Position numbers and translations under genes: made by a program. A model generated the notes under the pieces. The model was given only the letters and a program-made list of their open reading frames with translations, made no database searches and had not been told where the DNA came from. Shown in pieces: positions 238 through 59,288 of a stretch of 64,000 nt of DNA. Origin of the DNA: Patescibacteria group bacterium. Its GTDB lineage: Bacteria; Patescibacteriota; Minisyncoccia; RBG-13-40-8-A. The stretch is taken from NCBI GenBank assembly GCA_043807255.1, contig JAZDGD010000007.1:17069-81068 (forward strand). The letters are read 5' to 3'. Each line of letters starts with the position of its first letter. Positions within the stretch are counted from its first letter, which is position 1.

Positions 238-1821
238 ATGCGACCAATAATTCTAACGATTTTAGACGGCTGGGGAATCGGCGAACCAGAACAAACCAAC
301 CCAATTTATCGGGCAAAAATTTCTAATCTTAAAAAAATTGAACAATTATATCCTTTTTGTTCCTTGCAAGCGTCTGGAGGAGCAATTGGTTTGCCATGGA
401 AAGAAGCAGGGAATTCAGAAGTTGGCCACCTAACCATTGGTAGCGGAAGAACAATTTATCAATATTTACCTAGAATTTCTATGGATATTGAAAATGAAAC
501 ATTTTTCACTAACCCAGCATTTTTAAAAACAATCGATCATGTCAAAAAATATAATTCTACCCTACATTTAATAGGATTAATTTCCAGCGGGAATGTGCAT
601 TCTTACCTGGAACATGTTTATGCCCTACTAGAACTAGCGAGAAGGAATAATATTGATAATTTACGACTTCATCTTTTTACTGATGGCAAAGATGCTCCAT
701 TAAAAGAAGGAATCAAAATTATTTCTATTCTTGAACAAAAATTAAAAAATCCAAACTGGAAAATTGCTTCCATTGTCGGCAGAAATTATGCTATGGACAG
801 AAACCATAATTGGGACAGGACCGAAACTGCTTACAATTTAATTGTTAATGGCGCTGGAGAAAAAACCTTTAATCCACTCGAAAGAATAAGAGAATATTAT
901 GACCAAGACATTACAGATACCTACATTAAACCGATCGTAATCATAGATGATAATCAAAATCCGATTGGTATTGTAAAAAACAATGATGCGATTATTTCTT
1001 GGGACTTTAGAGAAGATAGTGCCCGACAATTAACTGAAGCATTTGTTAAAAAAGATTTTAATAAATTCGAAAGAAAATTAATTGAAAATTTATTTTTTTG
1101 CACAATGACTGAATACGAAAAAGATTTGCCAATTGCAATTGCCTATCCGCCAATGAAAATTATTAATCATTTAACGGAGATCCTAAATCAATACAATAAA
1201 AAAATACTAAAAGTTGCTGAAACGGAAAAATATGCCCATGTTACATATTTTTTCAATGGCAATCAAGAAAATTTATTTCCCAATGAAACAAGAAAATTAA
1301 TTGCTTCTAATATTGTTACGCATTACGACGAAACACCAGAAATGCAATCAGAAAAAATTACCGAAACCATTATTGAGGGGCTTAAAGAAAATTATGATTT
1401 AATTGTTGCAAATTATTCCAATGCCGATATGATTGGCCATACAGGAAATTTAAAGGCTGGGATTAAGGCAGTGGAAGCAATTGATAAGGCGTTAAAACCA
1501 TTAATCAAATTGGCAGAAAAAGGAGAATGCGTTTTAATAATCACCGCTGACCACGGAAATATTGAACAAATGGTAAATCTTCATACTGGCGAACCGAAAA
1601 CTGAACACACATTAAATCCGGTGCCATTTTATTTGGTGGGCAAAGAATTTAAAAAAGTGCAGGCGCCACGCCCGACTTCGCAAGACGAAGTCGTTGCGGG
1701 CGGGGGCTGGGGGATGCCCCAGGGCATGCTTTCTGATATTGCGCCAACAATTCTCGAATTAATGCAAATCCCTCAACCATCAGAAATGACGGGAAAAAGT
1801 TTATTGAGTGTTTTAAAATAA
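238..1821 (+). CDS. gpmI: 2,3-bisphosphoglycerate-independent phosphoglycerate mutase. Carries an in-frame GC-rich palindromic insertion near the C-terminus (about 1660-1735)
   Basis: ILDGWG and NSEVGH motifs are present and the protein is collinear with iPGM over 527 aa. The C-terminal segment QAPRPTSQDEVVAGGGWGMPQG is encoded by a GC-rich palindromic stretch absent from E. coli GpmI. Confidence 0.9.
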   Translation: MRPIILTILDGWGIGEPEQTNPIYRAKISNLKKIEQLYPFCSLQASGGAIGLPWKEAGNSEVGHLTIGSGRTIYQYLPRISMDIENETFFTNPAFLKTIDHVKKYNSTLHLIGLISSGNVHSYLEHVYALLELARRNNIDNLRLHLFTDGKDAPLKEGIKIISILEQKLKNPNWKIASIVGRNYAMDRNHNWDRTETAYNLIVNGAGEKTFNPLERIREYYDQDITDTYIKPIVIIDDNQNPIGIVKNNDAIISWDFREDSARQLTEAFVKKDFNKFERKLIENLFFCTMTEYEKDLPIAIAYPPMKIINHLTEILNQYNKKILKVAETEKYAHVTYFFNGNQENLFPNETRKLIASNIVTHYDETPEMQSEKITETIIEGLKENYDLIVANYSNADMIGHTGNLKAGIKAVEAIDKALKPLIKLAEKGECVLIITADHGNIEQMVNLHTGEPKTEHTLNPVPFYLVGKEFKKVQAPRPTSQDEVVAGGGWGMPQGMLSDIAPTILELMQIPQPSEMTGKSLLSVLK

Positions 1822-2583: not shown

Positions 2584-3171
2584 CTATTTCCGTTTATCAA
2601 TTATCGAATCGATTAAACCGTACTCTTTCGCTTCTTCGGATGACATATAATAATCACGGTCGCTGTCTTTTTCGATTTTATCTATTTTCTGACCAGTGTG
2701 TTTGGCAATGATTTTATTTAAGCGTTGCTTGGTTTTCATAATTTGTTTTGCAGAAATCTCAATATCTGATGCACGCCCCTCAACACCACTAACTGCGACC
2801 TGATGAATCATTACTTCTGAATTTGGCAAAGCAAATCTTTTTCCTTTTTTGCCGGCAGTTAAAACCACTGCTGCACCCGAGGCTGCTAAACCAATACAAA
2901 CTGTTGAAATATCACATTTCACAAATTGCATTGTGTCATAAATTGCCATAGTTGCCGTAACGCTTCCTCCAGGACTATTAATGTAAATCAAAATATCTCT
3001 CTTTGGGTCTTGGTTTTCCAAAAACAATAATTGTGCAATAACTGCATTTGCCGTATCGTCATCAATTGGACCGCCCAAAAAAATAATTCTGTCTTTTAAT
3101 AATCTTGAATATATGTCGTAGGCTCTCTCACCGTTTTGTGATTTTTCTATGACCGTTGGTATTAAATTCAT
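2584..3171 (-). CDS. clpP: ATP-dependent Clp protease proteolytic subunit
   Basis: Full-length match to the ClpP family ([15 protein letters not shown]). Confidence 0.92.
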
Positions 3172-4124
3172 AAAATTTCTGCTTCGCGCTCAATGAGCTC
3201 AAAGACTTTTTCATTAATAATTACACCTTCAGTATATTCTTTTAAAGCTGCCAAATCAATAGTTTTTTTAACTTTTTCCGCGTCTGGATAGCGCATTAAT
3301 TCTTGATTCATTTTTTCTTCAATCTCTTCAGTTGTAGGAATTATTTCTTCTTTGTCGGCGATTGCTTTAATGCATAATCCGATTTTTGCCCTTTTTTCTG
3401 CTTGCACCCTCCAACTGCTTTTTAACTCATCTAACGTTGATTTAATTTGCATTAAATAAGTTTCAAACTCTAATCCGAATTGAGTAATACTTAATTTAAA
3501 TTCATTAATCATATTTTCTAATTCCGTATCAACTAATTCTTTTGGTACTTCGATTTTAGAATCATTTGCAACTTGTTCAATTAATTCAATCCTTACCCTT
3601 TGCTTATTCATTAATTCCTTTTCTTGTTTTAAACCATCAATAACGCTTTTTTTAAATTCTTCTAAAGATTTAAACTTGCCCATAGATATTGCAAATTCAT
3701 CGTTCAATTCTGGAACTTGTCTTTCTTGAACAAGAATCATCTTTGCTTTAAAATCCAAGCCCTTGCCAGCAACCCTTTTGTCTGTCCAATCATCAGGAAC
3801 TTTTAAGGAAAATTCTTTTTCGTCTCCGGCTTTCATCCCTTCTAATTCTTTTTCAAATCCCGGTAAAAATTGTCCCTCACCTAAAATCAAAGGATGGTTT
3901 TTACTTTCACCGTTTTCAACCTTAACTCCACCGCACCTCACTTCGAAATCAATTTCAATGCGATTTCCTTTTTCTGCCGGCTTATTTATGGTTACGGTTT
4001 TTGCCCGAGAATTTTGAATATACTTTAAAGCACTTTCAATTTCTTTTTCTTCAACTTTCGAATCTTTTTTAGTTGCTTTAAGTTTTCTATAATTTGCCAA
4101 TTCGATTTTTATTTCATTAGTCAT
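3168..4124 (-). CDS. tig: trigger factor lacking the N-terminal ribosome-binding domain (FKBP-type PPIase plus C-terminal domain only)
   Basis: Collinear with E. coli Tig from about residue 115 onward (IDFEVR, [13 protein letters not shown], [16 protein letters not shown]). The start overlaps the nusA stop (ATGA), so there is no room for an N-terminal domain. Confidence 0.75.
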
Positions 4125-5800
4125 TTTATTTCTATTTCCTGAATTAATTTTTTAGTTGCCGGAAAAGTTAATTTTTCCATCGCTTCTTCTTTGGTCGCCC
4201 ATTCATATTTATCATGTTCAATAATTTCCTGTTTTAAAGAAATTATTTGCTCCATGTCGGCTTTAACCAAAAACGTATCCGCAATAACATAATTAATTCC
4301 ATCCGCTTGCCATTCTTCTTTCTTCCCTAGTTTTTTAATTACTTTAAATTTTTTAATTTGAGTTTCTTCTGCAATGCCTCTCTTTATCGTTTTTAATGGC
4401 GTTTCTCCCGGCTCAACGGTTTCTTTTAAAAATTCCCAACCATTCCATCTTAAAATTCTGTGAAGAATCAAAAAATACGGTTTATCATCTTTAACGTCGT
4501 ATATAATAGCTCTATACTTTTTTATTCCATCCCCGCCCCCGCCAACATCTGATGAAGTTGTGGCGGGTGGCGGGCCCGCCTGAATGCCCTCTGGGCTTTC
4601 GGCGAGCTTGTCGGCTTCTATCATTTTTTCACTCTTAACATCTATTTTCCAGCCCGTTAGTTTTGCGGCCAATCTTACGTTCTGTCCACGTTGTCCAATT
4701 GCTAAAGAAATTTGATCTTCGGGGACAATTACTGTTGCGCTTCTGTCTTTTTCTTCAGTTTTCACGCTAATAATTTTAGCAGGCGACAATGCATTGGCGA
4801 TATATTTCTCCATATTTTCATTCCACTCAATGATGTCAATTTTCTCTCCACCCAATTCAGCAATCACTGTTTGTACCCTGCTTCCTTTTTGTCCAACACA
4901 AGAACCAACTGGATCAACCCCTTGCTCTTCTGTAAAAACTGCAATCTTTGTTCTTGAGCCAGGCTCTCGAGCGATGGATTTTATTTGCACCGTTCCCGTT
5001 GAAATTTCTGGAACCTCAATAGAAAATAATCTGCTCACTAATTTTGGATAAGCGCGAGACAAAACAATATCAGCACCTTTTGAAGATTTTTCAACTTTCA
5101 AAATATAAACTCTCAAACGTTGACCGATAAAAAATCTTTCCCCGGGGATTTGCTCTTCGGCGTATAAAATTCCTGATGCCTTACCGATGTCCATAAAAAT
5201 ATTTCTGCCTTCAATCCTTTGTACTATCGCGCTCACGACTTCACCTTCTTTGTCTTTATACTCCGCAAACACAACCTCTCTTTCGGCTTCTCTTAATCTT
5301 TGAATAATAACTTGTTTTGCGGTTTGGGCAGCGATTCTTCCGAAATCGGTATGAGCCTCGAGTTTAGTTTGGATTTCATCTCCTGGCTTTGACCCTTTTT
5401 TAATTTTTTGTGCGTCATCAACCATCACATGTTTGAAGGGATTGAAACGAACTTTCTTGTTGCCTTCTGCATCAATTTCTTCGTCGTCCTCAAACTCTTC
5501 CCCGCCCCCACCAACATCTGATGAAGTTGTGGCGGGTGGCGGGCCCGCCTGAATGCCCTCTGGGCTTTCGGCGGGTTCTTCCTTTAACATACTTTCATCC
5601 ACAACCAAAAATACCTGGAAAACTTTTATTTCTCCAGTATTTAAATCGAACTTGACCTTAATATTCTGACCTTTCTTGCCATAGTCCTTCTTGTATGCAG
5701 CGGCAATCGCCATCTCAAGGGTTTCAATAATTTGTTCTTGAGAAATGCCTTTTTCTTCGGCAATTTGACTCATTGCTGATATAAATTGTTTTTGATCCAT
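4121..5800 (-). CDS. nusA: transcription factor NusA (NTD-S1-KH1-KH2) fused to a C-terminal NUDIX (MutT-like) domain. Contains two in-frame copies of a 76-bp GC-rich repeat
   Basis: Recognised parts are the NusA NTD (ISQIAEEKGIS, FGRIAAQTAKQVIIQRLREAERE), the S1 and two KH domains (IGQRGQNVRLAAKLTGWKIDV). The C-terminal 130 aa carry a Nudix box (WEFLKETVEPGETPLKTIKRGIAEETQI) that aligns position by position with the MutT box [30 protein letters not shown]. The peptide AESPEGIQAGPPPATTSSDVGGGG occurs twice. Confidence 0.85.
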   Translation of the reverse strand: MDQKQFISAMSQIAEEKGISQEQIIETLEMAIAAAYKKDYGKKGQNIKVKFDLNTGEIKVFQVFLVVDESMLKEEPAESPEGIQAGPPPATTSSDVGGGGEEFEDDEEIDAEGNKKVRFNPFKHVMVDDAQKIKKGSKPGDEIQTKLEAHTDFGRIAAQTAKQVIIQRLREAEREVVFAEYKDKEGEVVSAIVQRIEGRNIFMDIGKASGILYAEEQIPGERFFIGQRLRVYILKVEKSSKGADIVLSRAYPKLVSRLFSIEVPEISTGTVQIKSIAREPGSRTKIAVFTEEQGVDPVGSCVGQKGSRVQTVIAELGGEKIDIIEWNENMEKYIANALSPAKIISVKTEEKDRSATVIVPEDQISLAIGQRGQNVRLAAKLTGWKIDVKSEKMIEADKLAESPEGIQAGPPPATTSSDVGGGGDGIKKYRAIIYDVKDDKPYFLILHRILRWNGWEFLKETVEPGETPLKTIKRGIAEETQIKKFKVIKKLGKKEEWQADGINYVIADTFLVKADMEQIISLKQEIIEHDKYEWATKEEAMEKLTFPATKKLIQEIEIK

Positions 5801-5855: not shown

Positions 5856-5884
5856 ATTTTATGATATTAAAATTCGGATGTCAA
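5856..5884 (-). promoter_or_regulatory. sigma70-like promoter for nusA (TTGACA-17-TAAAAT on the minus strand), followed by a 5'-UTR hairpin (5821-5845)
   Basis: The minus strand reads GGTTGACATCCGAATTTTAATATCATAAAAT. No SD is found before the ATG at 5800. Confidence 0.5.
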
Positions 5885-5904
5885 CCCTTCGACTTCGCTC
5901 AGGG

Positions 5905-6282
5905 CTAGTACATATCTCCAACTGCATTTTCTAGATGGCGAATATCGAAAGTTTCATCGCGGTAAATTTCAATTGCCAAAACATCTATTTGCCAATCACT
6001 ATCTAATAATTTTTTCTTGCTTAAGTAAATTTGCGATAATTTAATTAATTTTTTCTGCTTGGTATAAGTAATGTTGTCTTCCGGCCAAAATCCGCCTGGC
6101 CCAGTTTTCATACGTGTTTTAACTTCAAAAAAAACGATATTATCGCCTTTCTTTGCAATAATATCTAACTCTCCTAATTTACTATACCTAAAATTCTTAT
6201 CTAAAATTTTATATCCCTTATTCTCCAAATATTCTCTTGCAATTTTCTCCCCCTTATCGCCCAAATCTTTTTTCTCTCGCAT
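5905..6282 (-). CDS. yraN: YraN/UPF0102 family endonuclease
   Basis: GELDIIA...VFFEVKTR pattern and a size of about 120 aa. Confidence 0.7.
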   Translation of the reverse strand: MREKKDLGDKGEKIAREYLENKGYKILDKNFRYSKLGELDIIAKKGDNIVFFEVKTRMKTGPGGFWPEDNITYTKQKKLIKLSQIYLSKKKLLDSDWQIDVLAIEIYRDETFDIRHLENAVGDMY

Positions 6283-14118: not shown

Positions 14119-14298
14119 ATTTTTTTATTAATTTAATAAAATCTGGTGCTTGCACCGCGAAGCTCTGAGGTTTTCCGAAGAGCGAAGTGGTGGACTTAGG
14201 CAGAATCCCCGCCTGCAACGCCTTGCGTAGCAATGGCGGGCAGGGAACTCGCCGTCTCAGCAACCTGCCTACCGGCAGGCAGGCTGCCGTCTTGTTAT

Positions 14299-14369
14299 TG
14301 GACTTAGCGGGAATCGAACCCACGTTTCGTCAATGCGAATGACGCGTATTACCACTATACTATAAGCCC
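14299..14369 (-). tRNA. tRNA-Ala (anticodon CGC), no encoded CCA
   Basis: A cloverleaf was derived by hand. The acceptor stem is GGGCTTA/TAAGTCC with the G3:U70 Ala identity pair, the anticodon loop is TTCGCAT and the T-loop is TTCGATT. Confidence 0.85.
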
Positions 14370-18101: not shown

Positions 18102-19094
18102 ATGCTACTAAAAAGCAGGCGGAATTTTTATTTATCCAAAATTGAAATGCTTACGAACAAATTAACCCCATATTTACAAAAATTAACCAAAACTTGCCCA
18201 GCAATCAAGCGCCAATTTGTTTACTCAAAACAAGAAAATTTATCTAAAAATAAAGATAAAAAATCAACATTTATTGACCCATTAATGGAGGAGAAATATA
18301 CTGTTGTGCGTGGGTTGATTCACAAATATGATAATCGTGCCCTGATCTTATTAACCCTAAATTGTGCTGCCTATTGTAGATTTTGTACTAGACGCAGAAA
18401 GGTTTCTGATATAAAAAATGGCCTATTATCAGACGAGGACATAAACAATATTGTCGCTTACATTAAAAAACATTCTGAGATTAAAGAAATTATCCTTTCC
18501 GGCGGAGATCCGTTAACCGTGCCCGTTCTATTACAAAAATTATTATTAAAACTTTCTAAACTTTCGCAAATCAAAATTATTAGAATTGGTACTCGTTTGC
18601 CTGTCGCTGACCCTCAAAAAATAAATTCAAAACTAATTAATATTTTAAAAGTCATAAAAAATAAAACTGTATACATTTTAATTCATTTTGAGCATCCCAA
18701 AGAAATTACCAAACAAACAATTATTGCTGTAAACAAATTAAAACAAGTTTCAACAATGCTTTTATCTCAATCGGTATTTTTAAAAAATGTTAATGATTCA
18801 TTTGATACGCTCTATGAACTTTTTTCTCAGTTAATTGAAATTGAGGTTAAGCCATACTATTTATATCATTGTGATCCAGTTAAGGGCGCTGAGCATTTTA
18901 TTGTTGATTTCAAAAAAGAAATAAAAATTGTTACCGAATTACGAAAAGAATTAAGTGGATTAGCATTTCCAACATATATTATTGATGCACCCAACGGTGC
19001 AGGCAAAATTCCTGTACCCCTGGAATTCTGGAAATTCGATTCAGACAAATACAAAGATTTTAACGGCAAAATCTTACGAGGTTTAACCTCGTAA
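18102..19094 (+). CDS. KamA-family radical SAM protein (lysine 2,3-aminomutase / EpmB-like)
   Basis: CAAYCRFC (CxxxCxxC) and SGGDPL. The size matches EpmB. Confidence 0.75.
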   Translation: MLLKSRRNFYLSKIEMLTNKLTPYLQKLTKTCPAIKRQFVYSKQENLSKNKDKKSTFIDPLMEEKYTVVRGLIHKYDNRALILLTLNCAAYCRFCTRRRKVSDIKNGLLSDEDINNIVAYIKKHSEIKEIILSGGDPLTVPVLLQKLLLKLSKLSQIKIIRIGTRLPVADPQKINSKLINILKVIKNKTVYILIHFEHPKEITKQTIIAVNKLKQVSTMLLSQSVFLKNVNDSFDTLYELFSQLIEIEVKPYYLYHCDPVKGAEHFIVDFKKEIKIVTELRKELSGLAFPTYIIDAPNGAGKIPVPLEFWKFDSDKYKDFNGKILRGLTS

Positions 19095-19121
19095 GATTTT
19101 GCATTTAAGTTCGAATTCATA

Positions 19122-28812: not shown

Positions 28813-30312
28813 TTATTTTATCCAATATTTTTCACGGATTTTTAGATCTTCTTCTTCCTTTTTTTCTTCGATTTTACCTTTGGCTAATTTGCGAAGAACT
28901 TCTAGGTTTTCTTCGTTTAATTCTAAAACTCTTTTTTCTAAATATTTCTTATTATTGTTCTTCGGCTCTTCAATTACTTCCGCCAACAAAACATCCAAAA
29001 TCGCACCTACTTTTGGACTGGGTTCGATTTTTAACAATTTCATTATATCCGTGCCATTAATTTTCAACATCTTTGCAGAAATCGGATCCTTGGAAATTTT
29101 TTCAATCATATACTCAATTGTTCTTAAACGATAGGGTTTTTCTTTCGGCCTTCCCATTCCCAATCTATCGGCAACTCTTAAATTAATCAAATCAACAATA
29201 TTTTCTTTGCCCACTCTTTTTAATAATCTTCTTGCGCCAGCATCAGTTAATTTTTCTGGGTCGGAAACAAACATATGATTTCTAACCAGCAAAACAACTT
29301 TATCAATAAATTTATTGGAGAATTTTAATCGTTTTAAAATTTTATCGACAAATTTCGCACCAACATAATCGTGATTATAAAAAGTAGAGTCGGGGCCTTC
29401 GCCTTGTTTGGTTTCTGGCTTACCAATATCATGGAATAAGGCCGCAACCTTTACTTCTAAATTAAAATCTTTCTTTGCTGCTTCATCCAACGCCCTTAAA
29501 GAGTGCTCATAAATATCATAAATATGGTGCTTGTTTTGGCTTACGCCAACACCCTTGTCGAGTTCTGGCAAAATGAATTTAAGTAAATTTGTTTGTCGCA
29601 ATAAATCAATTCCATTTGCTGCTTTTTTGGTTTGAAAAATTTTAATTAATTCGTCGTGAATTCTTTCATTGGAAATCATTTGAATTAATTCTGCATTTTT
29701 TTGAATCGCCTTAAAGGTTTTTTCCTCGATCGTAAAATCAAGGGTGCAGGCGAATCTTACCGCTCTTAGCATTCTTAGTGCGTCTTCATCGAATCTTTTA
29801 TTCGCATCGCCAACCGCACGAATTATTTTATTTTTTAAATCTTTCTGTCCATCGAAAAAATCTAATATTCGGACGTCCGATGTCCTACCATTCTTAATGT
29901 CGGGACATCGGACGTCCCCCATTTTTAACGCGAGTGCATTTACCGTAAAATCCCGCCTGGCAAGATCTTCTTCTAACTTTTTAGCAAAAGTTATTTCGTC
30001 AGGATGACGCTTGTCAGAATATTTTCCCTCTAAGCGAAAAGGCGTGATCTCGACAATTTTTAATGTTTCGTCTTTAGAATCAGTAATTACGCTTACTGTG
30101 CCAAATTGATTTTCATAAAAATTTTTAGGGAATAACTTTCTAATTTGTTCCGGTTTAGCATTAGTAGTAATGTCCCAATCGTTGGGCTTAATGTCTCTTC
30201 CTTCGACTTCGCTCAGGACGAGGTCGCGAACACAACCACCAACAGCATAAGCTTCGTAGTCATTCTTAATCAATTTTTCTAATATTAAATTAACTTCCTT
30301 GGGAATTGTCAT
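28813..30312 (-). CDS. cca: CCA-adding tRNA nucleotidyltransferase with an HD domain. Carries two in-frame palindromic-element insertions
   Basis: GGCVRD, RRDFTVNALA and HDIGKP. The inserted peptides are SEVEGRD and KMGDVRCPDIKNGRTSDVR. Confidence 0.88.
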   Translation of the reverse strand: MTIPKEVNLILEKLIKNDYEAYAVGGCVRDLVLSEVEGRDIKPNDWDITTNAKPEQIRKLFPKNFYENQFGTVSVITDSKDETLKIVEITPFRLEGKYSDKRHPDEITFAKKLEEDLARRDFTVNALALKMGDVRCPDIKNGRTSDVRILDFFDGQKDLKNKIIRAVGDANKRFDEDALRMLRAVRFACTLDFTIEEKTFKAIQKNAELIQMISNERIHDELIKIFQTKKAANGIDLLRQTNLLKFILPELDKGVGVSQNKHHIYDIYEHSLRALDEAAKKDFNLEVKVAALFHDIGKPETKQGEGPDSTFYNHDYVGAKFVDKILKRLKFSNKFIDKVVLLVRNHMFVSDPEKLTDAGARRLLKRVGKENIVDLINLRVADRLGMGRPKEKPYRLRTIEYMIEKISKDPISAKMLKINGTDIMKLLKIEPSPKVGAILDVLLAEVIEEPKNNNKKYLEKRVLELNEENLEVLRKLAKGKIEEKKEEEDLKIREKYWIK

Positions 30313-30407: not shown

Positions 30408-30486
30408 GCGGTCGCAAGATTGCCCTGCTCGCGGATGCGAGTCCGAGATTTAAACTTCGCCTTTTAAAGGCGAGGTTTTGTTTTTA
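30408..30486 (+). ncRNA. candidate small RNA of about 75 nt: promoter, internal hairpins, then an intrinsic terminator (30455-30485)
   Basis: The terminator CTTCGCCTTTTAAAGGCGAGGTTTTGTTTTT is plus-oriented. No ORF lies between the promoter and the terminator. Confidence 0.4.
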
Positions 30487-31114
30487 TAAAAGTAATTCCC
30501 TTTTTTATTCTTTGAGCATTGATATTCAAATCTGCTCTTTCTTTAAGATAATGCGTAATATATCCCGCACTAAATAAAATTACTTTTTTCTTTCTTCTTC
30601 TTAAAAAATTTAACAAATAGGCAAAATCTGCGTCGCTGGAAAATAAACAAAAAGTGTCATATTTGTCTAAGAATCTTATTGCATCAATACAAATTTCGGC
30701 ATCAAAATTACATTTCGGGATGTAAACGTATCTACCTTGATCGTCTTGATCTATGTTTCTTGTTGTGCTTTTTTCTTCGGAGGAATCTAAATAATGTCTA
30801 ATTTTTTGTATCGGTTTGGTAATTGTTTTGTCAAAATATTGTCTTGCTTTACTGATAATTTTGATAGATTTTTGCTTTGTTGTGTCCAGGCCAAAATAAA
30901 ATCTTTTATGCTCTGAAAATAAATTTATGAAACCTGCTAATTTTTCTATATCAACCACCAACTTTTTGTCTTGTGATAAAACATTATCATCGCCATCTCT
31001 TTCGTCTCTTTCGTACCAATAGTTTACATTCCCAAAATCAACAAAACTATAAATTTTACCAAATTTATTTTTATCTATTTCTAAGTTTTCTAATTTAAAC
31101 TCACACAAATCCAT
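30464..31114 (-). CDS. NYN/LabA-like (PIN-like) domain protein
   Basis: FSSDADFAYLL. A paralogous architecture occurs at 36881..37396. Confidence 0.55.
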   Translation of the reverse strand: MDLCEFKLENLEIDKNKFGKIYSFVDFGNVNYWYERDERDGDDNVLSQDKKLVVDIEKLAGFINLFSEHKRFYFGLDTTKQKSIKIISKARQYFDKTITKPIQKIRHYLDSSEEKSTTRNIDQDDQGRYVYIPKCNFDAEICIDAIRFLDKYDTFCLFSSDADFAYLLNFLRRRKKKVILFSAGYITHYLKERADLNINAQRIKKGITFIKTKPRL

Positions 31115-31178: not shown

Positions 31179-31252
31179 TGGTGCCCCCACAAGGAATCGG
31201 ACCTTGGTCAGCTGCTTAAAAGGCAGTTGCTTTACCATTAAGCTATGGGGGC
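31179..31252 (-). tRNA. tRNA-Lys (anticodon UUU) with encoded 3' CCA
   Basis: GCCCCCA...TGGGGGCACCA. Anticodon loop CTTTTAA. Confidence 0.8.
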
Positions 31253-31270: not shown

Positions 31271-31921
31271 TTAATTAATATGATTGCATATTTCTTCAAT
31301 CCATGCAAGAATTCTATGCCTTAAATTCTCATTATTGACCTGAATTCTAAGCGTTCCATTGTATAACTTGTTCTTTCTGTGACCAGTGCCTTCTTTTTTG
31401 AAGAAAGTGCTTCCAAATCTATTTGTCGAAATATGAACTATTTTTGACCAATATCTTTTTGCTTTTTTTTCATTAAGACCAGTGTGAAGGTGTAAATATG
31501 GCTTAATCTTGTTTTCTGGCACCATACAAACATCTCGATACCATTTCATCATAAATTTGATCAATAATGGATCAGAATTTGTGAAAGACGAACTTTTAAC
31601 CTTAGATCCTTCGGCCCAATACAATGCCGCACCGATCATTTTAATCTCGTAATTGTTTAAGTGCTTAATTTCTTTCTTCGCATTTTTTTTAATAACTTCA
31701 ATCTCTTTTTGTCTTTTTAGTTGGTTGGCTTTGGCACCACGGAATTGGGTATCATACAAAGAACCCAGACGAGTGATCTGTTTTTTGGTCAATTTAACGT
31801 TTTTACACCATGCGCTAATAGTGCTTTTGCTCACAGGAACCCGTTTCACTATTTCCGAATAGCTGAATCCCTTTTTTCTTAACTCCATAGCACGCTCTTT
31901 CAATTGCCATTTTCTAGTCAT
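31271..31921 (-). CDS. HTH-domain protein with a LAGLIDADG-like motif (putative homing-endonuclease-like), embedded between two tRNA-Lys genes
   Basis: N-terminal HTH (GFSYSEIVKRVPVSKSTIS) and IGAALYWAEGSK. Confidence 0.35.
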   Translation of the reverse strand: MTRKWQLKERAMELRKKGFSYSEIVKRVPVSKSTISAWCKNVKLTKKQITRLGSLYDTQFRGAKANQLKRQKEIEVIKKNAKKEIKHLNNYEIKMIGAALYWAEGSKVKSSSFTNSDPLLIKFMMKWYRDVCMVPENKIKPYLHLHTGLNEKKAKRYWSKIVHISTNRFGSTFFKKEGTGHRKNKLYNGTLRIQVNNENLRHRILAWIEEICNHIN

Positions 31922-31991
31922 AATCGTATATGTTAATTAATACTACATGATTACATATTAAGTATACGATCATAAAATTGTATTGTCAATT

Positions 31992-32062
31992 TGCCCCCAC
32001 AAGGAATCGGACCTTGGTCAGCTGCTTAAGAGGCAGTTGCTTTACCATTAAGCTATGGAGGC
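31992..32062 (-). tRNA. tRNA-Lys (anticodon CUU), no encoded CCA
   Basis: Identical to the UUU copy except at position 4 (C to T) and position 34 (T to C). Confidence 0.8.
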
Positions 32063-32069
32063 AGAAGAA

Positions 32070-34281: not shown

Positions 34282-35841
34282 ATGTTAACAGAAAAACAGC
34301 AAAAAATATTCGATTATATCAAGAAATATATAAAGAAAAATAACTACTCGCCTTCTCTCCAAGAGATCGCGAAACGTTTCAAGTTATCATCGATATCTGG
34401 CGTGCACCAACACGTCGAAGCGCTCAAATCAAAAGGCTATTTAAATAAATTTGAAAATCATCCAAGGACAATCCAAATATCAAATAAATTCAAAAGATTA
34501 AATTTTGTAAAAATACCAATTCTCGGAACCATCACCGCCGGACAACCAATAGAAGTTATTGAAACGCTAGGCGAAACAATTAATGTTTCGAAAAACGAAA
34601 TAAGTCCCTATTTTGATTATTATGCCCTTAAAGTCAAAGGCGACAGTATGATCGATGAGGGAATTTTTGACGGAGATACTGTTGTAATTAAAAAACAATC
34701 TACGGCAGAAAATGGCCAAACAGTGGTCGCCATAATAAATCAGAACGAGGCCACCTTAAAGAAAATCTACAAATTAAAAAATATTTTTAAATTGCAACCG
34801 GCAAATCAGAATATGTTACCAATTTATACAAACGAAATTGAGATTAGAGGTGTTCTCGTTAAAACTATTCCTGGTTTTCCAAGCACAAAAAACCAAACAA
34901 CGATCAGAACCCTGGATTTGTTCGCAGGGATTGGTGGCATACGTCTCGGATTCGAAAAGAATGGATTTGAAACAGTATTCTCTAATGATTTTGACGAAAA
35001 TTGCAAGACAACTTACGATTTAAATTTTAAAACCTCAAAACTTGTTACCGAAGACGTAACTAAAATTGGAATCGATGATTTGCCAGAATTTGATTTCTTG
35101 CTAGCAGGATTTCCGTGTCAAGCATTTTCAATTGCTGGATATCGACAAGGATTCAAGGACGAGAAAGGAAGGGGGAATCTATTTTTCGATATTGCGAGAA
35201 TTATTGACGCCCGGAAACCGAAAGGTTTCTTATTGGAAAATGTTAAGAATCTAATTAGCCACGACAATGGAAAAACGTTTAAAATAATAACGGAAACATT
35301 GAAAAATCTTGGCTATCACATTAAACCCGAAGTTTTAAATAGCATGAATTACGGTAACGTTCCACAAAATCGAGAGAGAATCTATATCGTGGGATTTAAA
35401 GACAAAAATAACATAGAGAAATTTAATTTTCCCGAACCCATAAAACTAGAAACAAAAATCAACGATTTTCTGGAAGAAAACGTTGATAATAAATACTATT
35501 ATAACGACAAGCCTCTCTATAAAAAACTCAAAGATTTTGTAAAAGAAGAAAATAAGATTTATCAATGGCGTAGACAATATGTGCGAGAAAATAAAAAAGG
35601 AGTTTGCCCAACGCTAACAGCAAATATGGGAACCGGCGGACACAATGTGCCAATTATAAAAGACAAAAAAGGAATCAGAAAACTGACTCCTCTTGAATGT
35701 TTTAGGTTGCAGGGTTTTTCGAAAGATTTTATATTGCCCAAATTGGCGGATTCTGTTTTATATAAACAGGCCGGAAATTCCGTAACCGTTTCGGTAGTTG
35801 AAAGAATTGCAAAAAAAATAAAAAGCGTAATGGATAATTAA
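34282..35841 (+). CDS. LexA-like repressor (wHTH plus S24 peptidase with Ala-Gly site, Ser and Lys) fused to a DNA (cytosine-5) methyltransferase
   Basis: N-terminal 200 aa are collinear with LexA (ITAGQP, GDSM, TLKK). The C-terminal part carries FAGIGG (motif I), FPCQAFS (IV), ENVKNL (VI), QNRERIY (VIII) and GNSV (X). Confidence 0.85.
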   Translation: MLTEKQQKIFDYIKKYIKKNNYSPSLQEIAKRFKLSSISGVHQHVEALKSKGYLNKFENHPRTIQISNKFKRLNFVKIPILGTITAGQPIEVIETLGETINVSKNEISPYFDYYALKVKGDSMIDEGIFDGDTVVIKKQSTAENGQTVVAIINQNEATLKKIYKLKNIFKLQPANQNMLPIYTNEIEIRGVLVKTIPGFPSTKNQTTIRTLDLFAGIGGIRLGFEKNGFETVFSNDFDENCKTTYDLNFKTSKLVTEDVTKIGIDDLPEFDFLLAGFPCQAFSIAGYRQGFKDEKGRGNLFFDIARIIDARKPKGFLLENVKNLISHDNGKTFKIITETLKNLGYHIKPEVLNSMNYGNVPQNRERIYIVGFKDKNNIEKFNFPEPIKLETKINDFLEENVDNKYYYNDKPLYKKLKDFVKEENKIYQWRRQYVRENKKGVCPTLTANMGTGGHNVPIIKDKKGIRKLTPLECFRLQGFSKDFILPKLADSVLYKQAGNSVTVSVVERIAKKIKSVMDN

Positions 35842-35844
35842 TAA

Positions 35845-36408
35845 TTACCAAACTTTTACATTACACGCAATTGGTTTTAATTTGCATCTTTCAATGATTT
35901 CTTTAGTTATACTAAATCTTGGTCTTCGTTTTTGTTTTTGTTGTTGCCTTAATGTTTGTTTCTTGTTTACTTTGGCATTAAGTATAAATCTAGATGGAAT
36001 TTTATAGACGTTAAAAGTCCCGTCTAGTTTTTTCTCATTATAAAAATCTAAAAAATACAAATCGTCCCATTGAGATTTTGGGCCAAATGTTGTTAAGTCG
36101 TGCTTTATACTAGATGCCTTTATTTGTTCAGCTCTTTTGGTTTTTAAATTAAATGTATCAAAAGATGTTGATGCTTCTCCCCTTAGGGATATAAATCTTT
36201 TCGAACCCGAAAACAAACAAAACGCCACCTCAGACAGACCCTCTGGCAAATTAGGTTCTCGTGATTTATATTCGCGCATACCTAATTTTAATTTTTTCCA
36301 TATATCAAAAAGTGCTTTCCATTTTTTACTGTCTTCTTTGTCAAAGCTCATGAGTTCCACTAAGCATTCCTTACCAAAGATAACGGTTTTGTATTGATCA
36401 ATATGCAT
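35845..36408 (-). CDS. hypothetical protein; candidate cognate type II restriction endonuclease, inferred only from its convergent position next to the methyltransferase
   Basis: Context only. No recognisable motif. Confidence 0.3.
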   Translation of the reverse strand: MHIDQYKTVIFGKECLVELMSFDKEDSKKWKALFDIWKKLKLGMREYKSREPNLPEGLSEVAFCLFSGSKRFISLRGEASTSFDTFNLKTKRAEQIKASSIKHDLTTFGPKSQWDDLYFLDFYNEKKLDGTFNVYKIPSRFILNAKVNKKQTLRQQQKQKRRPRFSITKEIIERCKLKPIACNVKVW

Positions 36409-37432: not shown

Positions 37433-39607
37433 ATGAATCGTAGTCTGAAGTTTGCAGATCAAGGCGAAAAATATATGGATGTGAAAACATTTAAAACAGA
37501 GATCGAAGGAAAAGAACTCTCTGTCGAGTTGGGTAGATTGGCTCAACAAACCAATGGCTCGGCCTTGGTAACGTATGGACAAACCACAGTTTTAGCAACT
37601 GCGGTTCTTTCCAATAAAAAAAGCGAAAAAACCTATTTTCCCCTAACCGTTGATTACGAAGAAAAATTTTACGCAGCGGGAAAAATCAAGGGCAGTCGTT
37701 TCATTAAAAGGGAAGGAAGGCCATCAGATGAAGCGATTTTAACTGGCCGAGTTATTGATAGATCAATCCGACCTCTTTTTAATCAAAAACTAAGAAACGA
37801 TTTACAGGTCGTTTTAACCGTCTTATCATTCGACGGTGAAAATGATCCAGTACTACCAGCGCTAATTGGCGCTTCGGTTGCCCTGTCTATTTCTGACATA
37901 CCATTTAATGGACCAATTGCAGGAATTTCTGCTGGTCAAGATGAAAAAGGAGAATGGATTGTTACTTCAACCTTAAGCGCAAAAGCAAAAACTGGTTCAG
38001 AAATTTTTGCAGCCGGAATCGAAAAAGACAACGATATTCTTTTAAATATGCTTGAAGGACAAGGAATACAGGTTCCAGAAGAGCAAATGCTTGAAGGAAT
38101 CGATGTTGTGAGAAAATATATTAAAAAATTAATTGATTTTCAAAAGGATATCATTAAAGAGGTTAAACCAGTCAAATTAGAATTAACAATCCCAGAAATT
38201 GATGCTGATCTTAAAAAATTAATCGATAAATTTCTTGAAGATAAAATAGAAACAGCAATTTATCATAAAGAAAAACAAGCCAGAGTAAAGCAATTAGAAG
38301 ATATTAATTTGGGAATTGAGGTCTTGATCGAAGAAAAATATCCCGAAGAAACAAAGGGAAAAACCGCAATGGTTATGGATTATCTTGAAGAAAAAATTGA
38401 TGAAATCACTCACATCAACATTCTTAAAAACGACAAGAGACCGGATGGTAGAAAAATGGACGAATTAAGAAAATTAAGCGCCGAAGTAGCAATTCTTCCT
38501 AGATTACACGGTTCGGGATTGTTCCAAAGAGGAGAAACACAAGTATTCTCTGCTGTTACTCTTGGCTCTCCTGGCTCGGAACAAATTTTTGACCAAATGG
38601 AGATTCAAGGCAAAAAAGGATTTATGCATGACTACAACTTTCCCCCATTCTCTGTGGGAGAGGTCGGACGAGTCGGAAATCCTGGCAGACGGGACATTGG
38701 CCATGGTGCATTAGCGGAAAAAGCGTTAATGGCGATTGTCCCTTCAAGAGAAGAATTTCCTTATACGATTAGAGTTGTATCTGAAGTCCTGTCTTCAAAT
38801 GGATCGTCTTCAATGGCATCTGTTTGCGGTTCGACATTAGCATTAATGGATGCCGGTGTTCCAATTAAAGAAAAGGCAGCTGGTATTGCCATGGGGTTAA
38901 TGATGGACCCTTCGACGGGCTCAGGGCAAGCTTTAAAATATAAAGTTTTAACCGATATTCAGGGACCAGAAGATCATTATGGCGACATGGACCTGAAGAT
39001 TGCTGGAACAAAAAATGGAATTAACGCACTTCAAATGGATATTAAAATTGACGGGATACCAATGAATATCTTGAAGGATGCATTTCAACAATCAAAAAGG
39101 GCACGTCTAGAAATTCTTGATGTAATCACAAAAACGATCGACGTACCTCGTGCAGAATTATCAACTTTTGCTCCTCGCGTTTATTCGATAAAAATCAATC
39201 CTGCCAAAATAGGATTAGTGATTGGTTCTGGCGGAAAAACAATTAATGAACTTTCCACAGAAACCGGAGCGACCATTGAAATCGAAGAAGATGGAACAAT
39301 CTTTGTTACCTGCAATGATGCTGATGGCGCAAAGCGAGCAATCAACAGGATTGAATCAATGACCAGGGAAGCAAAAGTAGATGAAGAATTTGAAGGAACG
39401 GTTGTTAAGGTTATGGAGTTCGGCGCATTTGTAGAATTGTTTCCCGGACAAGATGGATTGCTCCACATTTCCGAACTTTCGAACAAAAGAGTTGATAGGG
39501 TTGAAGACATAGTTAGACAAGGCGATATTGTTCATGTTAAAGTTAAGAAAGTGGACGATAGTGGTAAAATTAGTCTTGGTTTAATAAAAATTATTTCAAA
39601 AAAATAA
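37433..39607 (+). CDS. pnp: polynucleotide phosphorylase. The start may be the downstream Met at 37476. Carries an in-frame insertion DPSTGSGQALK encoded by a repeat element (38908-38926)
   Basis: Two RNase PH domains, KH and S1. VLTDIQGPEDHYGDMD. Confidence 0.9.
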   Translation: MNRSLKFADQGEKYMDVKTFKTEIEGKELSVELGRLAQQTNGSALVTYGQTTVLATAVLSNKKSEKTYFPLTVDYEEKFYAAGKIKGSRFIKREGRPSDEAILTGRVIDRSIRPLFNQKLRNDLQVVLTVLSFDGENDPVLPALIGASVALSISDIPFNGPIAGISAGQDEKGEWIVTSTLSAKAKTGSEIFAAGIEKDNDILLNMLEGQGIQVPEEQMLEGIDVVRKYIKKLIDFQKDIIKEVKPVKLELTIPEIDADLKKLIDKFLEDKIETAIYHKEKQARVKQLEDINLGIEVLIEEKYPEETKGKTAMVMDYLEEKIDEITHINILKNDKRPDGRKMDELRKLSAEVAILPRLHGSGLFQRGETQVFSAVTLGSPGSEQIFDQMEIQGKKGFMHDYNFPPFSVGEVGRVGNPGRRDIGHGALAEKALMAIVPSREEFPYTIRVVSEVLSSNGSSSMASVCGSTLALMDAGVPIKEKAAGIAMGLMMDPSTGSGQALKYKVLTDIQGPEDHYGDMDLKIAGTKNGINALQMDIKIDGIPMNILKDAFQQSKRARLEILDVITKTIDVPRAELSTFAPRVYSIKINPAKIGLVIGSGGKTINELSTETGATIEIEEDGTIFVTCNDADGAKRAINRIESMTREAKVDEEFEGTVVKVMEFGAFVELFPGQDGLLHISELSNKRVDRVEDIVRQGDIVHVKVKKVDDSGKISLGLIKIISKK

Positions 39608-40775: not shown

Positions 40776-40971
40776 GGAAGTGGTTTACCGCGAGCGAAGC
40801 ACCTTTGGTGCTGAGTCGAGTGGGGATAACTTGTTTAAAACATAATTTTAGGAAAACAAAACTCATCGATGTCAAGGGCGAAAATACTATATTTTAGCTC
40901 TAAAAACACAAGATTGTCTCAAAACCTTGATATTGACGAAATCATTAAAACTTATCCACAACCAGAATAAC

Positions 40972-42507: not shown

Positions 42508-42544
42508 TTATCCACAGTATTAACTATTGACAAACATATCTTAT

Positions 42545-42922
42545 ATGATATATACTGATTCTAATGAATATAAAGTAAAATTTTTCGTTGATCCCAAAAC
42601 AGGAAAAGATCCAGTTATGAAATACATTAATGATTTAGACGAAAAACAGAAAGCAAAAGTTTCTAGATTTATCGAATTTTTAAGACAACACGAAGGCGTA
42701 TTAGATGAGCCATACTCAAAACACATTAAAGGCAAAATTCGCGAATTAAGGATTGATTTTGGCAAAAATAGACACAGAATCTTCTATTTTACGTTCATCA
42801 ACAAGAACATCATATTGCTCCACGCATTTTTAAAGCATACGCAAAAAACTCCTGAAACTGAGATAAAAATCGCTGAAAATAATTATAATATTGTAATTAA
42901 TAATCCAAAATTTTATGAATAA
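42545..42922 (+). CDS. higB: HigB/Gp49-like (RelE/ParE superfamily) toxin. Start uncertain: alternatives are 42617 or the TTG at 42527, which is more likely a -35 hexamer
   Basis: IRELRIDFGKNRHRIFYF ... LLHAFLK, similar to Gp49/HigB-2. Confidence 0.6.
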   Translation: MIYTDSNEYKVKFFVDPKTGKDPVMKYINDLDEKQKAKVSRFIEFLRQHEGVLDEPYSKHIKGKIRELRIDFGKNRHRIFYFTFINKNIILLHAFLKHTQKTPETEIKIAENNYNIVINNPKFYE

Positions 42923-43205
42923 AAAAATAAAAGCAAGAGATTTTCAAAAATACCTTGCTCAACAATTAAAAAATCCCGAATTCAAGAGACACTACGATGA
43001 TTACGGCAAACAATTAGAAATTGCTTACCAGATTTTGAAGTTGCGAAAACAGAGAAATATGTCCCAGTTACAATTAGCCAGAAAGATTAAAACCAAGCAA
43101 AGCAATATCGCCCGAATCGAAGCTGGCAAACAAAATCTTAGCATTCAAACCCTCGACAGCATCGCCCGCGCATTAAACAGCAATTTTACAGTCAACTTTT
43201 CGTAA
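42915..43205 (+). CDS. higA: HTH XRE-family antitoxin (HigA-like)
   Basis: HTH (LRKQRNMSQLQLARKIKTKQSNIARIE). Overlaps the toxin stop. Confidence 0.65.
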   Translation: MNKKIKARDFQKYLAQQLKNPEFKRHYDDYGKQLEIAYQILKLRKQRNMSQLQLARKIKTKQSNIARIEAGKQNLSIQTLDSIARALNSNFTVNFS

Positions 43206-43317
43206 AATCCACATCGCCGAAGCGTTGCAATATAGACCGAAGATGGAGGTATGATAAAATTTTCAATTTTCAATTTCTAATTTACAATGAATTTTTAATG
43301 ATTAAATTTTCAAACCC

Positions 43318-43455
43318 ATGACCAAGAAAATAAAAGCAAGAGATTTCCAAAAATATCTTGCCGAACAATTAAAAAATCCTGAATTTAAGAAACATTACGA
43401 TAAATTCGGCAAAAAATTAAGGCAGAATTATAAAAAAAGCGAAATACATGATTAA
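43318..43455 (+). pseudogene. truncated second copy of the HigA-like antitoxin (N-terminal 45 codons only)
   Basis: MTKKIKARDFQKYLAEQLKNPEFKKHYD, against MNKKIKARDFQKYLAQQLKNPEFKRHYD in the intact copy. Confidence 0.55.
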
Positions 43456-45828: not shown

Positions 45829-45863
45829 ATAGATGTACGGAGAACTGTTCTCCGTACATCTAT
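45829..45863. promoter_or_regulatory. perfect 16-bp inverted repeat with a 3-nt spacer (ATAGATGTACGGAGAA ctg TTCTCCGTACATCTAT) upstream of the small Cys-rich gene; putative operator
   Basis: Read directly from the sequence. Confidence 0.55.
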
Positions 45864-45873
45864 AATTAAATTA

Positions 45874-49507: not shown

Positions 49508-50373
49508 TGATTAAAATTCAAGATATTTTAAACAGATACAATATCAAACCCAATAAATTTATGGGGCAGAATTTTTTGATTGACGAGAATGTTTTGAATA
49601 AAATTATTGAAACTGCAAACATTAAACCAAACGATATTATTTTGGAGGTTGGGCCCGGATTAGGAAATTTAACATTGGAACTAGCAAAAAGGGCAGAGCG
49701 AGTGATTGCGATTGAAAAAGATAGAGAATTGTGTGAAATATTAGAAAAAATTCTAAAAGATAACAACATAAAAAATGTCCAAATTATCAATGACGATATT
49801 TTAAAAATGGGAGACATCGCACGTCCCCATGTAGGACGTGCGATGTCCTACATGGTTGTGGCAAATATTCCGTACTATCTTACTTCGCCATTGATTAGAA
49901 TGTTTTTGGAAACAGAAAATAAACCAAGCGAAATAATTTTAATGATTCAAAAAGAGGTGGCTCAGCGCATCTGCGCTTCGCCACCCACTAAATCGCCAAA
50001 GGCGATCGGGCCCGAACTACGAAGTAGTTCTAGGGCAAAAATGTCCTTACTCGCCGTATCTGTGCAATTTTATGCTAAACCAGAGATAATTTCTTTTGTT
50101 TCTAAAAATAGTTTTTACCCTGTGCCAAAAGTGGATTCTTCAATCATCAAAATAGTGCCCTACAACACAAAGAATGTTGGACGTCCGACGTCCAACATTG
50201 ATACGGAAAAGTTTTTTAAATTGGTGAAAATGGGGTTTTCTGCGAAAAGAAAGATGCTAAAAAACAACATCCCTGAAATTAATTTTGAAAAATTAAATTT
50301 AAATCCAGGTATTCGTGCAGAGAGTTTAACGATCAATGATTGGATTAAAATTTATGAACAATTTAATCCCTAA
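49507..50373 (+). CDS. rsmA: 16S rRNA (adenine1518/1519-N6)-dimethyltransferase with three in-frame palindromic-element segments
   Basis: GQNFL, EVGPGLGNLT and NIPYY. The extra segments are KMGDIARPHVGRAMSYM, TKSPKAIGPELRSSS and NVGRPTSNID. Confidence 0.88.
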   Translation: MIKIQDILNRYNIKPNKFMGQNFLIDENVLNKIIETANIKPNDIILEVGPGLGNLTLELAKRAERVIAIEKDRELCEILEKILKDNNIKNVQIINDDILKMGDIARPHVGRAMSYMVVANIPYYLTSPLIRMFLETENKPSEIILMIQKEVAQRICASPPTKSPKAIGPELRSSSRAKMSLLAVSVQFYAKPEIISFVSKNSFYPVPKVDSSIIKIVPYNTKNVGRPTSNIDTEKFFKLVKMGFSAKRKMLKNNIPEINFEKLNLNPGIRAESLTINDWIKIYEQFNP

Positions 50374-58164: not shown

Positions 58165-58186
58165 TTTGTATTTAAAAATAATCTAG

Positions 58187-59243: not shown

Positions 59244-59288
59244 TCATCCGCAATCCGCTGATTAGCATTAAATTCGCATATTCGCATT

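Follow-up and report, generated by a model that had tools for sequence, protein, structure and literature searches.

A GC-rich palindromic hairpin repeat translated at two sites of a NusA-Nudix fusion protein in a Patescibacteria group bacterium

Introduction

Palindromic repeats that lie in frame in many unrelated genes and add short fold-compatible peptides to the encoded proteins have been described as Rickettsia palindromic elements (RPEs) (PMC10969869). RPEs are dispersed in a small genome, are often found in frame in unrelated and often essential genes, also occur in non-coding DNA, and encode no transposase. In these respects they resemble the subject of this report, a GC-rich hairpin repeat that occurs twice within the nusA gene of a Patescibacteria group bacterium. 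This gene, which encodes NusA fused to a Nudix domain, lies on a 64-kb stretch of contig JAZDGD010000007.1 (64,000 nt, analyzed as a whole and termed the window in the following). Reportedly, RPEs were originally described by Ogata et al. in 2000. They are the closest functional analogue of the nusA repeat. RPEs measure approximately 100–150 bp, belong to Alphaproteobacteria and fall into about ten families, whereas the modules described here comprise 25–75 nt, are GC-rich in an AT-rich genome, possess a CCCGCC/GGCGGG stem with variable loops and are nested in either orientation. We do not claim membership of a homologous RPE family; length (75 nt) and host differ, and similarity in sequence is not expected.

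Short, mobile GC-rich hairpins in AT-rich genomes, both intergenic and in frame within variable regions of protein-coding genes, also occur in fungal and chytrid mitochondria in the form of GC clusters and double-hairpin elements. The double-hairpin elements of Allomyces were reportedly described by Paquin et al. in 2000, and the yeast mitochondrial gene VAR1 carries a GC cluster. These elements are organellar, whereas the nusA repeat is bacterial, and the sequences are unrelated.

Repetitive extragenic palindromes (REPs) form another class of bacterial hairpin repeats. They are extragenic by definition, and one of their ends typically bears a GTAG or CGTC tag (PMC3733652). REPs and the bacterial interspersed mosaic elements composed of them are imperfect palindromes of 20–40 nt in mosaic clusters next to the 3' ends of genes. 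Hairpins with the stem of the nusA repeat are likewise found in intergenic DNA directly after stop codons in two of the genomic loci compared below (L004 and L009). Unlike REPs, the nusA copies are intragenic and translated and possess no GTAG or CGTC tag, and no gene for a REP-associated tyrosine transposase (RAYT) or other Y1 transposase was found among the scanned ORFs of the window. Location, terminal tag and the lack of a RAYT gene in the 64 kb examined thus led us to reject membership in the REP/RAYT system.

Results and Discussion

A repeat of two stem-loops is translated twice in nusA

The repeat search of the window revealed a direct repeat of 75 nt at positions 4530–4604 and 5499–5573 with 74 of 75 positions identical (99%). 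An initial annotation of the window had described this repeat as 76 bp long with 75 of 76 identical positions. The repeat itself is real, GC-rich and present in two in-frame copies; the figures require correction, since a recount over 4531–4606 and 5500–5575 gave 74/76. The GC content is 0.65–0.69 in 75-nt windows of the repeat versus 0.35 for the whole window. Two occurrences of a 35-mer taken from the repeat were counted in the window, compared with 0.00 expected from dinucleotide-preserving shuffles. Both copies are read in frame and yield the common peptide AESPEGIQAGPPPATTSSDVGGGG, as had been annotated: the sole internal mismatch at 4541 (G vs A) is synonymous (GGC vs GGT). The assignment of the copies to their sites had been inverted because the gene lies on the minus strand. 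The copy at 4531–4606 is located in the KH2-Nudix linker, and the copy at 5500–5575 in a loop of the N-terminal domain (NTD) of NusA. The domain map and the structure-based alignment described below show that both of these sites are indeed occupied by the repeat.

Each copy consists of two adjacent stem-loops with predicted folding energies of −49.5 and −50.5 kcal/mol (z-scores −5.2 and −5.9). None of 200 shuffled sequences was as stable, in agreement with the hairpin potential noted initially. Hairpin 1 has the structure CCCGCC-GAAAGCCCAGAGGGCATTCA-GGCGGG, in detail CCCGCC-GAAA-GCCC-AGA-GGGC-ATTCA-GGCGGG, and hairpin 2 reads CCCGCCACCCGCC-ACAACTTCATCAGATGTT-GGYGGGGGCGGG. The CCCGCC/GGCGGG stem is common to both hairpins; the outermost stem pair of hairpin 1 in the linker copy (4575–4606) is broken (CTCGCC). 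The window contains five hairpins of the general form CCCGCC-N(8–30)-GGCGGG versus 0 expected. A search of Rfam assigned no known RNA family to either copy.

Nine copies of hairpin 1 were compared. In these, 96.7% of the stem positions are paired, and compensatory double changes are present at two of the 13 stem pairs. One of these changes, CG to UA in two copies, alters the peptide from PEGIQ to PEDIQ. The covariation score of hairpin 1 was reached by 2 of 500 shuffles. For a sample of only nine copies this is suggestive rather than conclusive of a maintained stem structure. A palindromic repeat with a predicted stable stem-loop is a feature which the element has in common with RPEs.

Both copies lie outside the conserved core of NusA

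Pfam assigned the domains NusA_N (aa 6–175), S1 (182–244), KH_5 (280–347), KH (355–391) and NUDIX (432–554) to the fused open reading frame (ORF). Thus, the protein possesses NusA_N, S1 and two KH domains in the canonical order of NusA. The NusA_N match spans aa 6–175 on a profile of only 119 positions and therefore contains an insertion of approximately 50 aa. The alignment with Thermotoga maritima NusA (1HH2, E 1.5e-84) pairs query residues 7–69 with residues 6–67 and query residues 121–389 with residues 71–339. Consequently, aa 70–120 of the query stand in for just three residues of the solved structure, and all residues after aa 389 lie outside the canonical NusA core. On the basis of this alignment, the NTD loop (aa 70–120) and the stretch after aa 389 can be taken as insertion-tolerant positions. 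Like RPEs, the copies are in frame and outside the folded core, one in a loop of three residues in 1HH2 and the other after the last strand of KH2. An AlphaFold2 model calculated from a 21-sequence alignment showed no secondary structure at 72–107 or 402–432, which is weak support at the mean pLDDT of 49.5. The complete protein is identical to MFH1129401.1 from an NCBI metagenome-assembled genome (MAG, "Patescibacteria group bacterium"), where it is annotated simply as NusA. This exact fused protein is known from one contig of that one MAG.

Hairpin modules turn over at the same sites in related genomes

The NusA protein was compared with its 120 best relatives, about 90 of which could be anchored. 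They are approximately 70–88% identical (BLAST) over 67–76% of the query. In the genomic loci of the relatives compared, numbered L001 onwards, the gene order yraN(UPF0102)-nusA-[nudix]-tig-clpP-(iPGM)-rny is conserved. Among the anchored relatives the NTD loop and the tail after KH2 are hypervariable in length and contain recurring peptide modules, here termed A to G, at both sites. Module A (PAESPEGIQ[A/T]GPPQSEGLGGE and variants) was found in the tails of proteins P0006 and P0020 and in the NTD loops of P0009, P0012 and P0039. Other modules at these sites are APTLAEGEVGVPT, SAKATADK/EAMADK and PTEVGVPTEVGK, and some relatives carry no module at all, for example EEAPVTEEEAEFEKEEE.

At the nucleotide level the NusA tail of L003 matches hairpin 1 at 41 of 42 positions, followed by a simpler hairpin 2, CCCGCC-ACAATCCGAAGGTTTG-GGCGGG. 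The window copy thus corresponds to module A with a modified second hairpin, in which CCGCCAC is doubled on the 5' arm, the 3' arm is extended to match and the loop is different. L015, whose nusA is 85% identical at the nucleotide level, carries module A with the simpler hairpin 2 at the exact same NTD site and module B in the tail. Related modules at the same two sites are thus present in the independent assemblies L003, L005, L012 and L015. The L015 contig (JGI 3300019785, 2119 nt) deserves a separate remark, as its nusA is split by several frameshifts into three called ORFs; this probably reflects a low-quality assembly and not a pseudogene, and the module A copy of the contig could nevertheless be used for the comparison.

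The flanking nusA sequence diverges by 13–19% (nucleotides) from the relatives, and the two repeat copies of the window are nearly identical. Their near-identity therefore points to a recent event, either a double insertion or an intragenic conversion.

A second gene behaves in the same way. The loop between GKEFK and PQGMLSDIAPT in the iPGM gene holds a GC-rich hairpin module in the window, and among the orthologues it contains one of three different hairpin modules or none. L007 and L008 carry a CCCGCC...GGCGGG hairpin (PAANSRMQAG) and L004 a TCCGCC...GGCGGA hairpin (SAFAKASADK), and L001 and L009 possess the AT-rich sequence QKNADEKFSFSV. The peptide of the window module, PTSQDEVVAG, resembles the peptide PPTSDEVVAG that is read from the inverted hairpin 2 in L013 (see below). 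Orthologous sites in NusA and iPGM are therefore polymorphic for the presence of this module, other modules or none, again as in RPEs.

Copies occur in other genes, frames and orientations

The scan of GTDB genomes (one genome per species) with the exact 35-mer gave no match. A 22-mer of hairpin 1 was found at three loci in the same collection. In ybeY of a Wildermuthbacteria MAG hairpin 1 is identical at 30 of 30 positions and is read in another frame as NPPKAQRAFRRA. A second MAG carries hairpin 1 in the C-terminal tail of ribosomal protein L25/Ctc and also in the NTD loop of NusA, there together with nested GC-rich modules of 24 and 21 nt. The metagenome scan for hairpin 2 revealed one contig (L013), in which it lies in the C-terminal tail of ribosomal protein L19, inverted and nested in the loop of hairpin 1. 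Searching with a concatenated 51-aa peptide gave four candidates and two matches. One of the matches, P0121, is an 80-aa membrane-anchored ORF on a groundwater contig of 44% GC (L014) and contains the whole composite at 72/76 nt. The scan of viral contigs detected no copy of hairpin 1. Thus, like RPEs, the modules are present in unrelated genes, namely those of NusA, ybeY, L25, L19 and a membrane protein, with same-stem hairpins in intergenic DNA.

The NusA-Nudix fusion arose from neighboring genes, independently of the repeat

The C-terminal domain had been annotated as MutT-like Nudix domain. The profile search confirmed this assignment: NUDIX (PF00293) matched with 38.3 bits (gathering cut-off 21.1, E 1.6e-9) over 124 of 134 profile positions. 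The Nudix box reads ...PGETPLKTIKRGIAEETQI compared with the consensus GX5EX7REUXEEXGU; it retains the Arg as well as the EE pair and lacks the first Gly. Instead of Glu, Gly follows the conserved Arg in each of the six family members, at a position which we take to be that of MutT E53. Among the NCBIfam models no equivalog scored above its cut-off, the best sub-threshold matches being NudB and RppH. The search with the Nudix domain yielded 341 representative sequences at E ≤ 0.001, which is a small family. Almost all of the best 150 of these are stand-alone proteins of approximately 130–160 aa and none is a fusion of the size of NusA-Nudix. The fusion is thus rare, and among the 120 best NusA relatives only three fusions were found.

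In L004, L005 and L009 a separate nudix ORF of 136–141 aa overlaps the 3' end of nusA by approximately 23–26 nt; nudix is therefore the ancestral downstream neighbor. L003, L007 and L008 have no nudix gene, and L007 retains the remnant "MTIKKV" in the +1 frame. At the unfused junction (AAA AGT TAG AGC) KKS* forms the end of nusA, and the +1 frame yields the KKVRA of nudix. The fused junctions are AGT TAT AGG GC in L001, AGC TAT AGA GC in L006 and AAG TAT AGA GC in the window, with the common product KK(S)YRAIIYD; fused genes are present in the window, in L001/L002 and in L006. The simplest account would be a duplication of TA inside the stop codon (TAG to TATAG); the tails upstream are too divergent to trace the exact indel path, which we infer. 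The process resembles cases in which adjacent genes were fused after a stop codon had been lost, in that two neighboring, overlapping ORFs were joined through a small indel at the stop.

The initial annotation had proposed that the repeat looks like a mobile in-frame linker which may have mediated this fusion. The first part of this idea is in agreement with the comparisons above, according to which the in-frame repeat behaves like a dispersed, mobile or copy-paste module; the role in the fusion is not. The junction signature is found 15–20 nt downstream of the repeat, and the TATAG junction is also present in L001 and L006, which lack this element and carry a K-rich linker (L001) or the different module APTLAEGEVG (L006) instead. 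Consequently, the element did not create the fusion.

At the nucleotide level the fused Nudix domain of the window shares 84% and 83% identity with the fused domains of L001 and L006, respectively, and 70–72% with the unfused ones. In contrast, the nusA core, tig and clpP (2584–5800) are closest to L007 and L009 (85–87%), in which nudix is missing or unfused. The fused Nudix allele thus groups apart from its genomic backbone, which distinguishes this rare case from the fusion type named above. These identities suggest that the fused allele may have been exchanged between lineages or may represent an old polymorphism.

Weighing of the explanations

The most convincing interpretation, which we regard as quite probable, is that the repeat is a dispersed palindromic hairpin composite translated at permissive sites of nusA, and that the fusion was a separate event. 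Several observations weigh against it. The window contains exactly two copies of the 75-mer, and within its 64 kb this exact element is confined to nusA. Both copies come from one and the same MAG contig, and the AlphaFold model with its mean pLDDT of 49.5 is too poor for an independent confirmation of disorder at the two sites. Very few loci were obtained by exact-pattern scans of very large collections, so that the family is either sparse or diverges rapidly. With regard to a possible assignment to the miniature inverted-repeat transposable elements, the two ends of the repeat (CCCGCC...GGCGGG) form an inverted repeat. However, the flanks of nine copies showed no consistent target-site duplication and only a loose GAA-rich context, no clean empty/filled site pair could be defined for this element, and the scanned ORFs of the window contained no RAYT, IS200 or other transposase and no integrase domain that could serve as mobilizer. 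Finally, hairpin 1 is read in one common frame by four of the five host genes. This could mean selection at the level of the peptide rather than neutral tolerance, although a value of about 0.1 is expected from chance alone.

The two copies of the window lie in one gene, no transposase was found in the scanned ORFs, and L015 with module A at the NTD site and module B in the tail fits copying from the NTD into the tail. All this would agree with a purely local duplication or gene conversion within nusA, without any mobile element and with hairpins that are incidental to GC-rich Pro/Gly coding. Such intragenic conversion explains the near-identity of the copies, but not the existence of a family: the same composite is present in an unrelated membrane-protein ORF of another organism, hairpin 1 in the genes of ybeY, L25 and L19, hairpin 2 is found inverted and nested, and the stems show compensatory changes. 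A local event is therefore unlikely. Selection for the peptide, with AESPEGIQAGPPPATTSSDVGGGG as a functional, flexible linker or interaction motif exchanged between proteins by recombination, receives some support from the frame PAESPEGIQAGPP..., which is common to NusA, L25, the membrane protein of L014 and partly L19, and from the location of both NusA copies in linkers or loops, where a flexible spacer would be of use. Yet ybeY reads hairpin 1 in another frame, L19 reads hairpin 2 from the opposite strand as a different peptide, the compensatory stem substitution replaces G by D in the peptide, and relatives carry unrelated modules or none at the same sites. The other two sense frames are highly basic and contain Cys and Trp, so that tolerance explains the shared frame. 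We consider peptide selection very unlikely.

Stable RNA or DNA structures with stems kept by compensatory change might also act in cis in nusA, as NusA-sensitive pause or attenuation sites which autoregulate the operon or as barriers to RNases. NusA is a stimulator of pausing and termination at hairpins, and autoregulation of nusA operons is known from model bacteria. But a U-tract follows neither of the copies, unrelated genes carry the same modules in both orientations, and close relatives have functional nusA genes without the hairpins. The structure is not tied specifically to nusA, and a regulatory role of this kind seems highly improbable to us. Since a single contig of one MAG is the only known source of the exact protein, duplication or misplacement of the 75-mer by the assembler, or a frameshift error behind the fusion, has to be considered as well. 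Such an artefact is hardly conceivable: each copy is flanked by different, correct, in-frame NusA sequence, related modules occupy the exact same two sites in L003, L005, L012 and L015, and the fusion junction together with the fused-type Nudix allele recurs in two independent metagenomes (L001/L002 and L006).

A dispersed hairpin composite and its possible spread

The above comparisons show a family of hairpin modules with homologous nucleotide sequences, which are found, also nested and with stems that remain paired, in various genes, genomes, frames and orientations. In our interpretation the two GC-rich stem-loops of the repeat belong to a modular palindromic family that is present across Parcubacteria/Patescibacteria in intergenic and genic DNA. 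Genic copies appear to persist only if their length is a multiple of three, their reading frame is free of stops and the site is permissive, that is, a surface loop, an inter-domain linker or a C-terminal tail. They would then be transcribed and translated as short peptides rich in Pro, Gly, Ser and acidic residues. In this clade such modules turn over at both nusA sites, the NTD loop and the tail after KH2. The two nusA copies of the window, which differ by one synonymous exchange and are therefore of recent origin, may stem from a double insertion of the composite or from gene conversion between an older module A copy in the NTD and a tail copy. The mode of copying, and its direction between the two nusA sites, we infer. 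We favor non-autonomous copying, either by a trans-acting enzyme encoded elsewhere that inserts by means of the hairpin or by recombination or template switching between copies. The fusion is a separate event that started from nusA and an overlapping nudix gene, whose frames were most simply joined by the TAG to TATAG indel; the element just occupies the resulting linker.

Our tentative general proposal, to which we give somewhat less than even chances, is that Patescibacteria harbor hitherto undescribed nested CCCGCC-loop-GGCGGG modules which copy themselves into intergenic DNA and, in frame, into essential genes at positions of loops and linkers (for example in nusA, ribosomal protein genes, ybeY, iPGM, ksgA, pnp and cca). 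These modules would be maintained for their structure, would be mobilized in a hairpin-specific manner and would be a major source of new loops and linkers in these minimal genomes. They would thus be the equivalent in Patescibacteria of RPEs and of the GC clusters of mitochondria. Perhaps they also serve as crossover points for the exchange of alleles such as the fused nusA-nudix cassette. Searches of a full-text literature library revealed no account of such elements in Patescibacteria or the candidate phyla radiation, which holds within that library only.

In very small genomes repeats are not expected inside the most conserved genes. If the proposal is correct, essential proteins of ultra-small bacteria are remodelled by hairpin DNA that is selfish or selected for its structure, and many lineage-specific protein insertions in these bacteria would have a concrete source. 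Recurrent peptides such as PEGIQAGPPQSEGLGG, APTLAEGEVG, SAKATADK and others can mislead homology searches, domain calls and quality checks of MAGs. The rare NusA-Nudix fusion from a conserved gene pair suggests that transcription elongation or termination is functionally connected with a Nudix activity, for which the similarity to NudB and RppH is weak and below threshold.

Other hairpin modules and further features of the window

Further in-frame hairpins were located by ranking 50-nt windows according to their folding energy. They are listed in Table 1 together with the features of the nusA locus.

Table 1: Coordinates of the fused nusA-nudix gene, its repeat copies and other hairpin modules in the window.
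Feature	Position	Strand	Remarks
Fused nusA-nudix ORF	4121..5800	minus	559 aa; Pfam domains and 100% match to MFH1129401.1
NUDIX domain	4139..4507	minus	variant Nudix box E-x7-RG-IxEET
Fusion junction	4506..4529	minus	GAT GGA ATA AAA AAG TAT AGA GCT (DGIKKYRA); TATAG is the reverse complement of CTATA at 4512–4516
Element copy, KH2-Nudix linker, aa 403–426	4530..4606	minus	hairpin 2 at 4532–4574, hairpin 1 at 4575–4606
Element copy, NusA N-terminal-domain loop, aa 77–100	5499..5575	minus	hairpin 1 at 5544–5575, hairpin 2 at 5501–5543
GC-rich 60-nt hairpin module in iPGM, in frame	1657..1716	plus	VQAPRPTSQDEVVAGGGWGM; differs from the nusA module
Intergenic module between yraN (UPF0102) and nusA	5884..5905		CCCTTCGACTTCGCTCAGGGC
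Non-coding CCCGCC...GGCGGG hairpin adjoining tRNA-Ala	14208..14240		
Perfect hairpin with 16-bp stem in CCA-adding/poly(A) polymerase-family gene, in frame	29871..29917	minus	MGDVRCPDIKNGRTSDVRIL
Module in the same CCA-adding/poly(A) polymerase-family gene, in frame	30200..30222	minus	CCTTCGACTTCGCTCAGG (LSEVEGR); 14-mer also at 5884–5905
Hairpin module in KsgA/RsmA gene, in frame	49810..49855	plus	MGDIARPHVGRAMSY
Second GC-rich multi-hairpin island in KsgA gene, in frame	49950..50030	plus	SPPTKSPKAIGPELRSSSR

Some of these modules are repeated within the window. The sequence CGACTTCGCTCAGG is present at 5890 (intergenic) and at 30204 (coding), and a related sequence lies in frame in the PNPase gene at approximately 38906–38930. 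Likewise, GGGACGTGCGA occurs at 2258 (non-coding stretch near 2250–2270) and at 49817 (module in the KsgA/RsmA gene). The region 14141–14298 is GC-rich (58–70%), strongly structured and non-coding and adjoins the gene of tRNA-Ala(cgc) (14299–14369, minus strand); a search of Rfam with this region gave no family, even at E ≤ 1. Runs of perfect stem-loops of 9–16 bp at 2386–2470, 19066–19100 and 45829–45900 are intergenic or extend across stop codons, and AAAATCTTACGAGGTTTAACCTCGTAAGATTTT spans the stop of ORF 18102..19094. These stem-loops resemble terminators or REP-like elements and belong to sequence families other than that of the nusA repeat.

The second long direct repeat of the window (71 nt, 97%; 31179–31252 and 31991–32063) corresponds to two tRNA-Lys genes (ttt, ctt). 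Two ORFs of 216 aa are located nearby, 30464..31114 with an NYN domain and 31271..31921 without Pfam match. ORF 34282..35841 encodes a LexA DNA-binding domain together with S24 peptidase and C-5 cytosine DNA methylase domains and thus represents an unusual combination of a LexA-type repressor with a restriction-modification methylase in one protein. It is adjoined on the opposite strand by the gene of a Bsp6I-like restriction endonuclease (35845..36408). A connection between the stems and GCNGC sites of this Bsp6I-like system (34282–36408) was considered and rejected, since the element contains no GCNGC site.

The last approximately 46 nt of the comM/Mg-chelatase gene (42460–42505) are repeated at 43207–43252 (91%). 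These repeats bracket a Gp49/HigB-like ORF (42527..42922) and an HTH-XRE ORF (42915..43205), and a partial copy of the start of the HTH gene follows at 43318–43419 (85%). The region 40927–43419 looks like a toxin-antitoxin cassette that was inserted at the 3' end of comM with duplication of the target. Finally, a cluster resembling type IV secretion and conjugation systems was found at 56008–63685; it encodes a PrgI-family protein, a TraG/VirB4-like ATPase and a type IV secretion system pilin.

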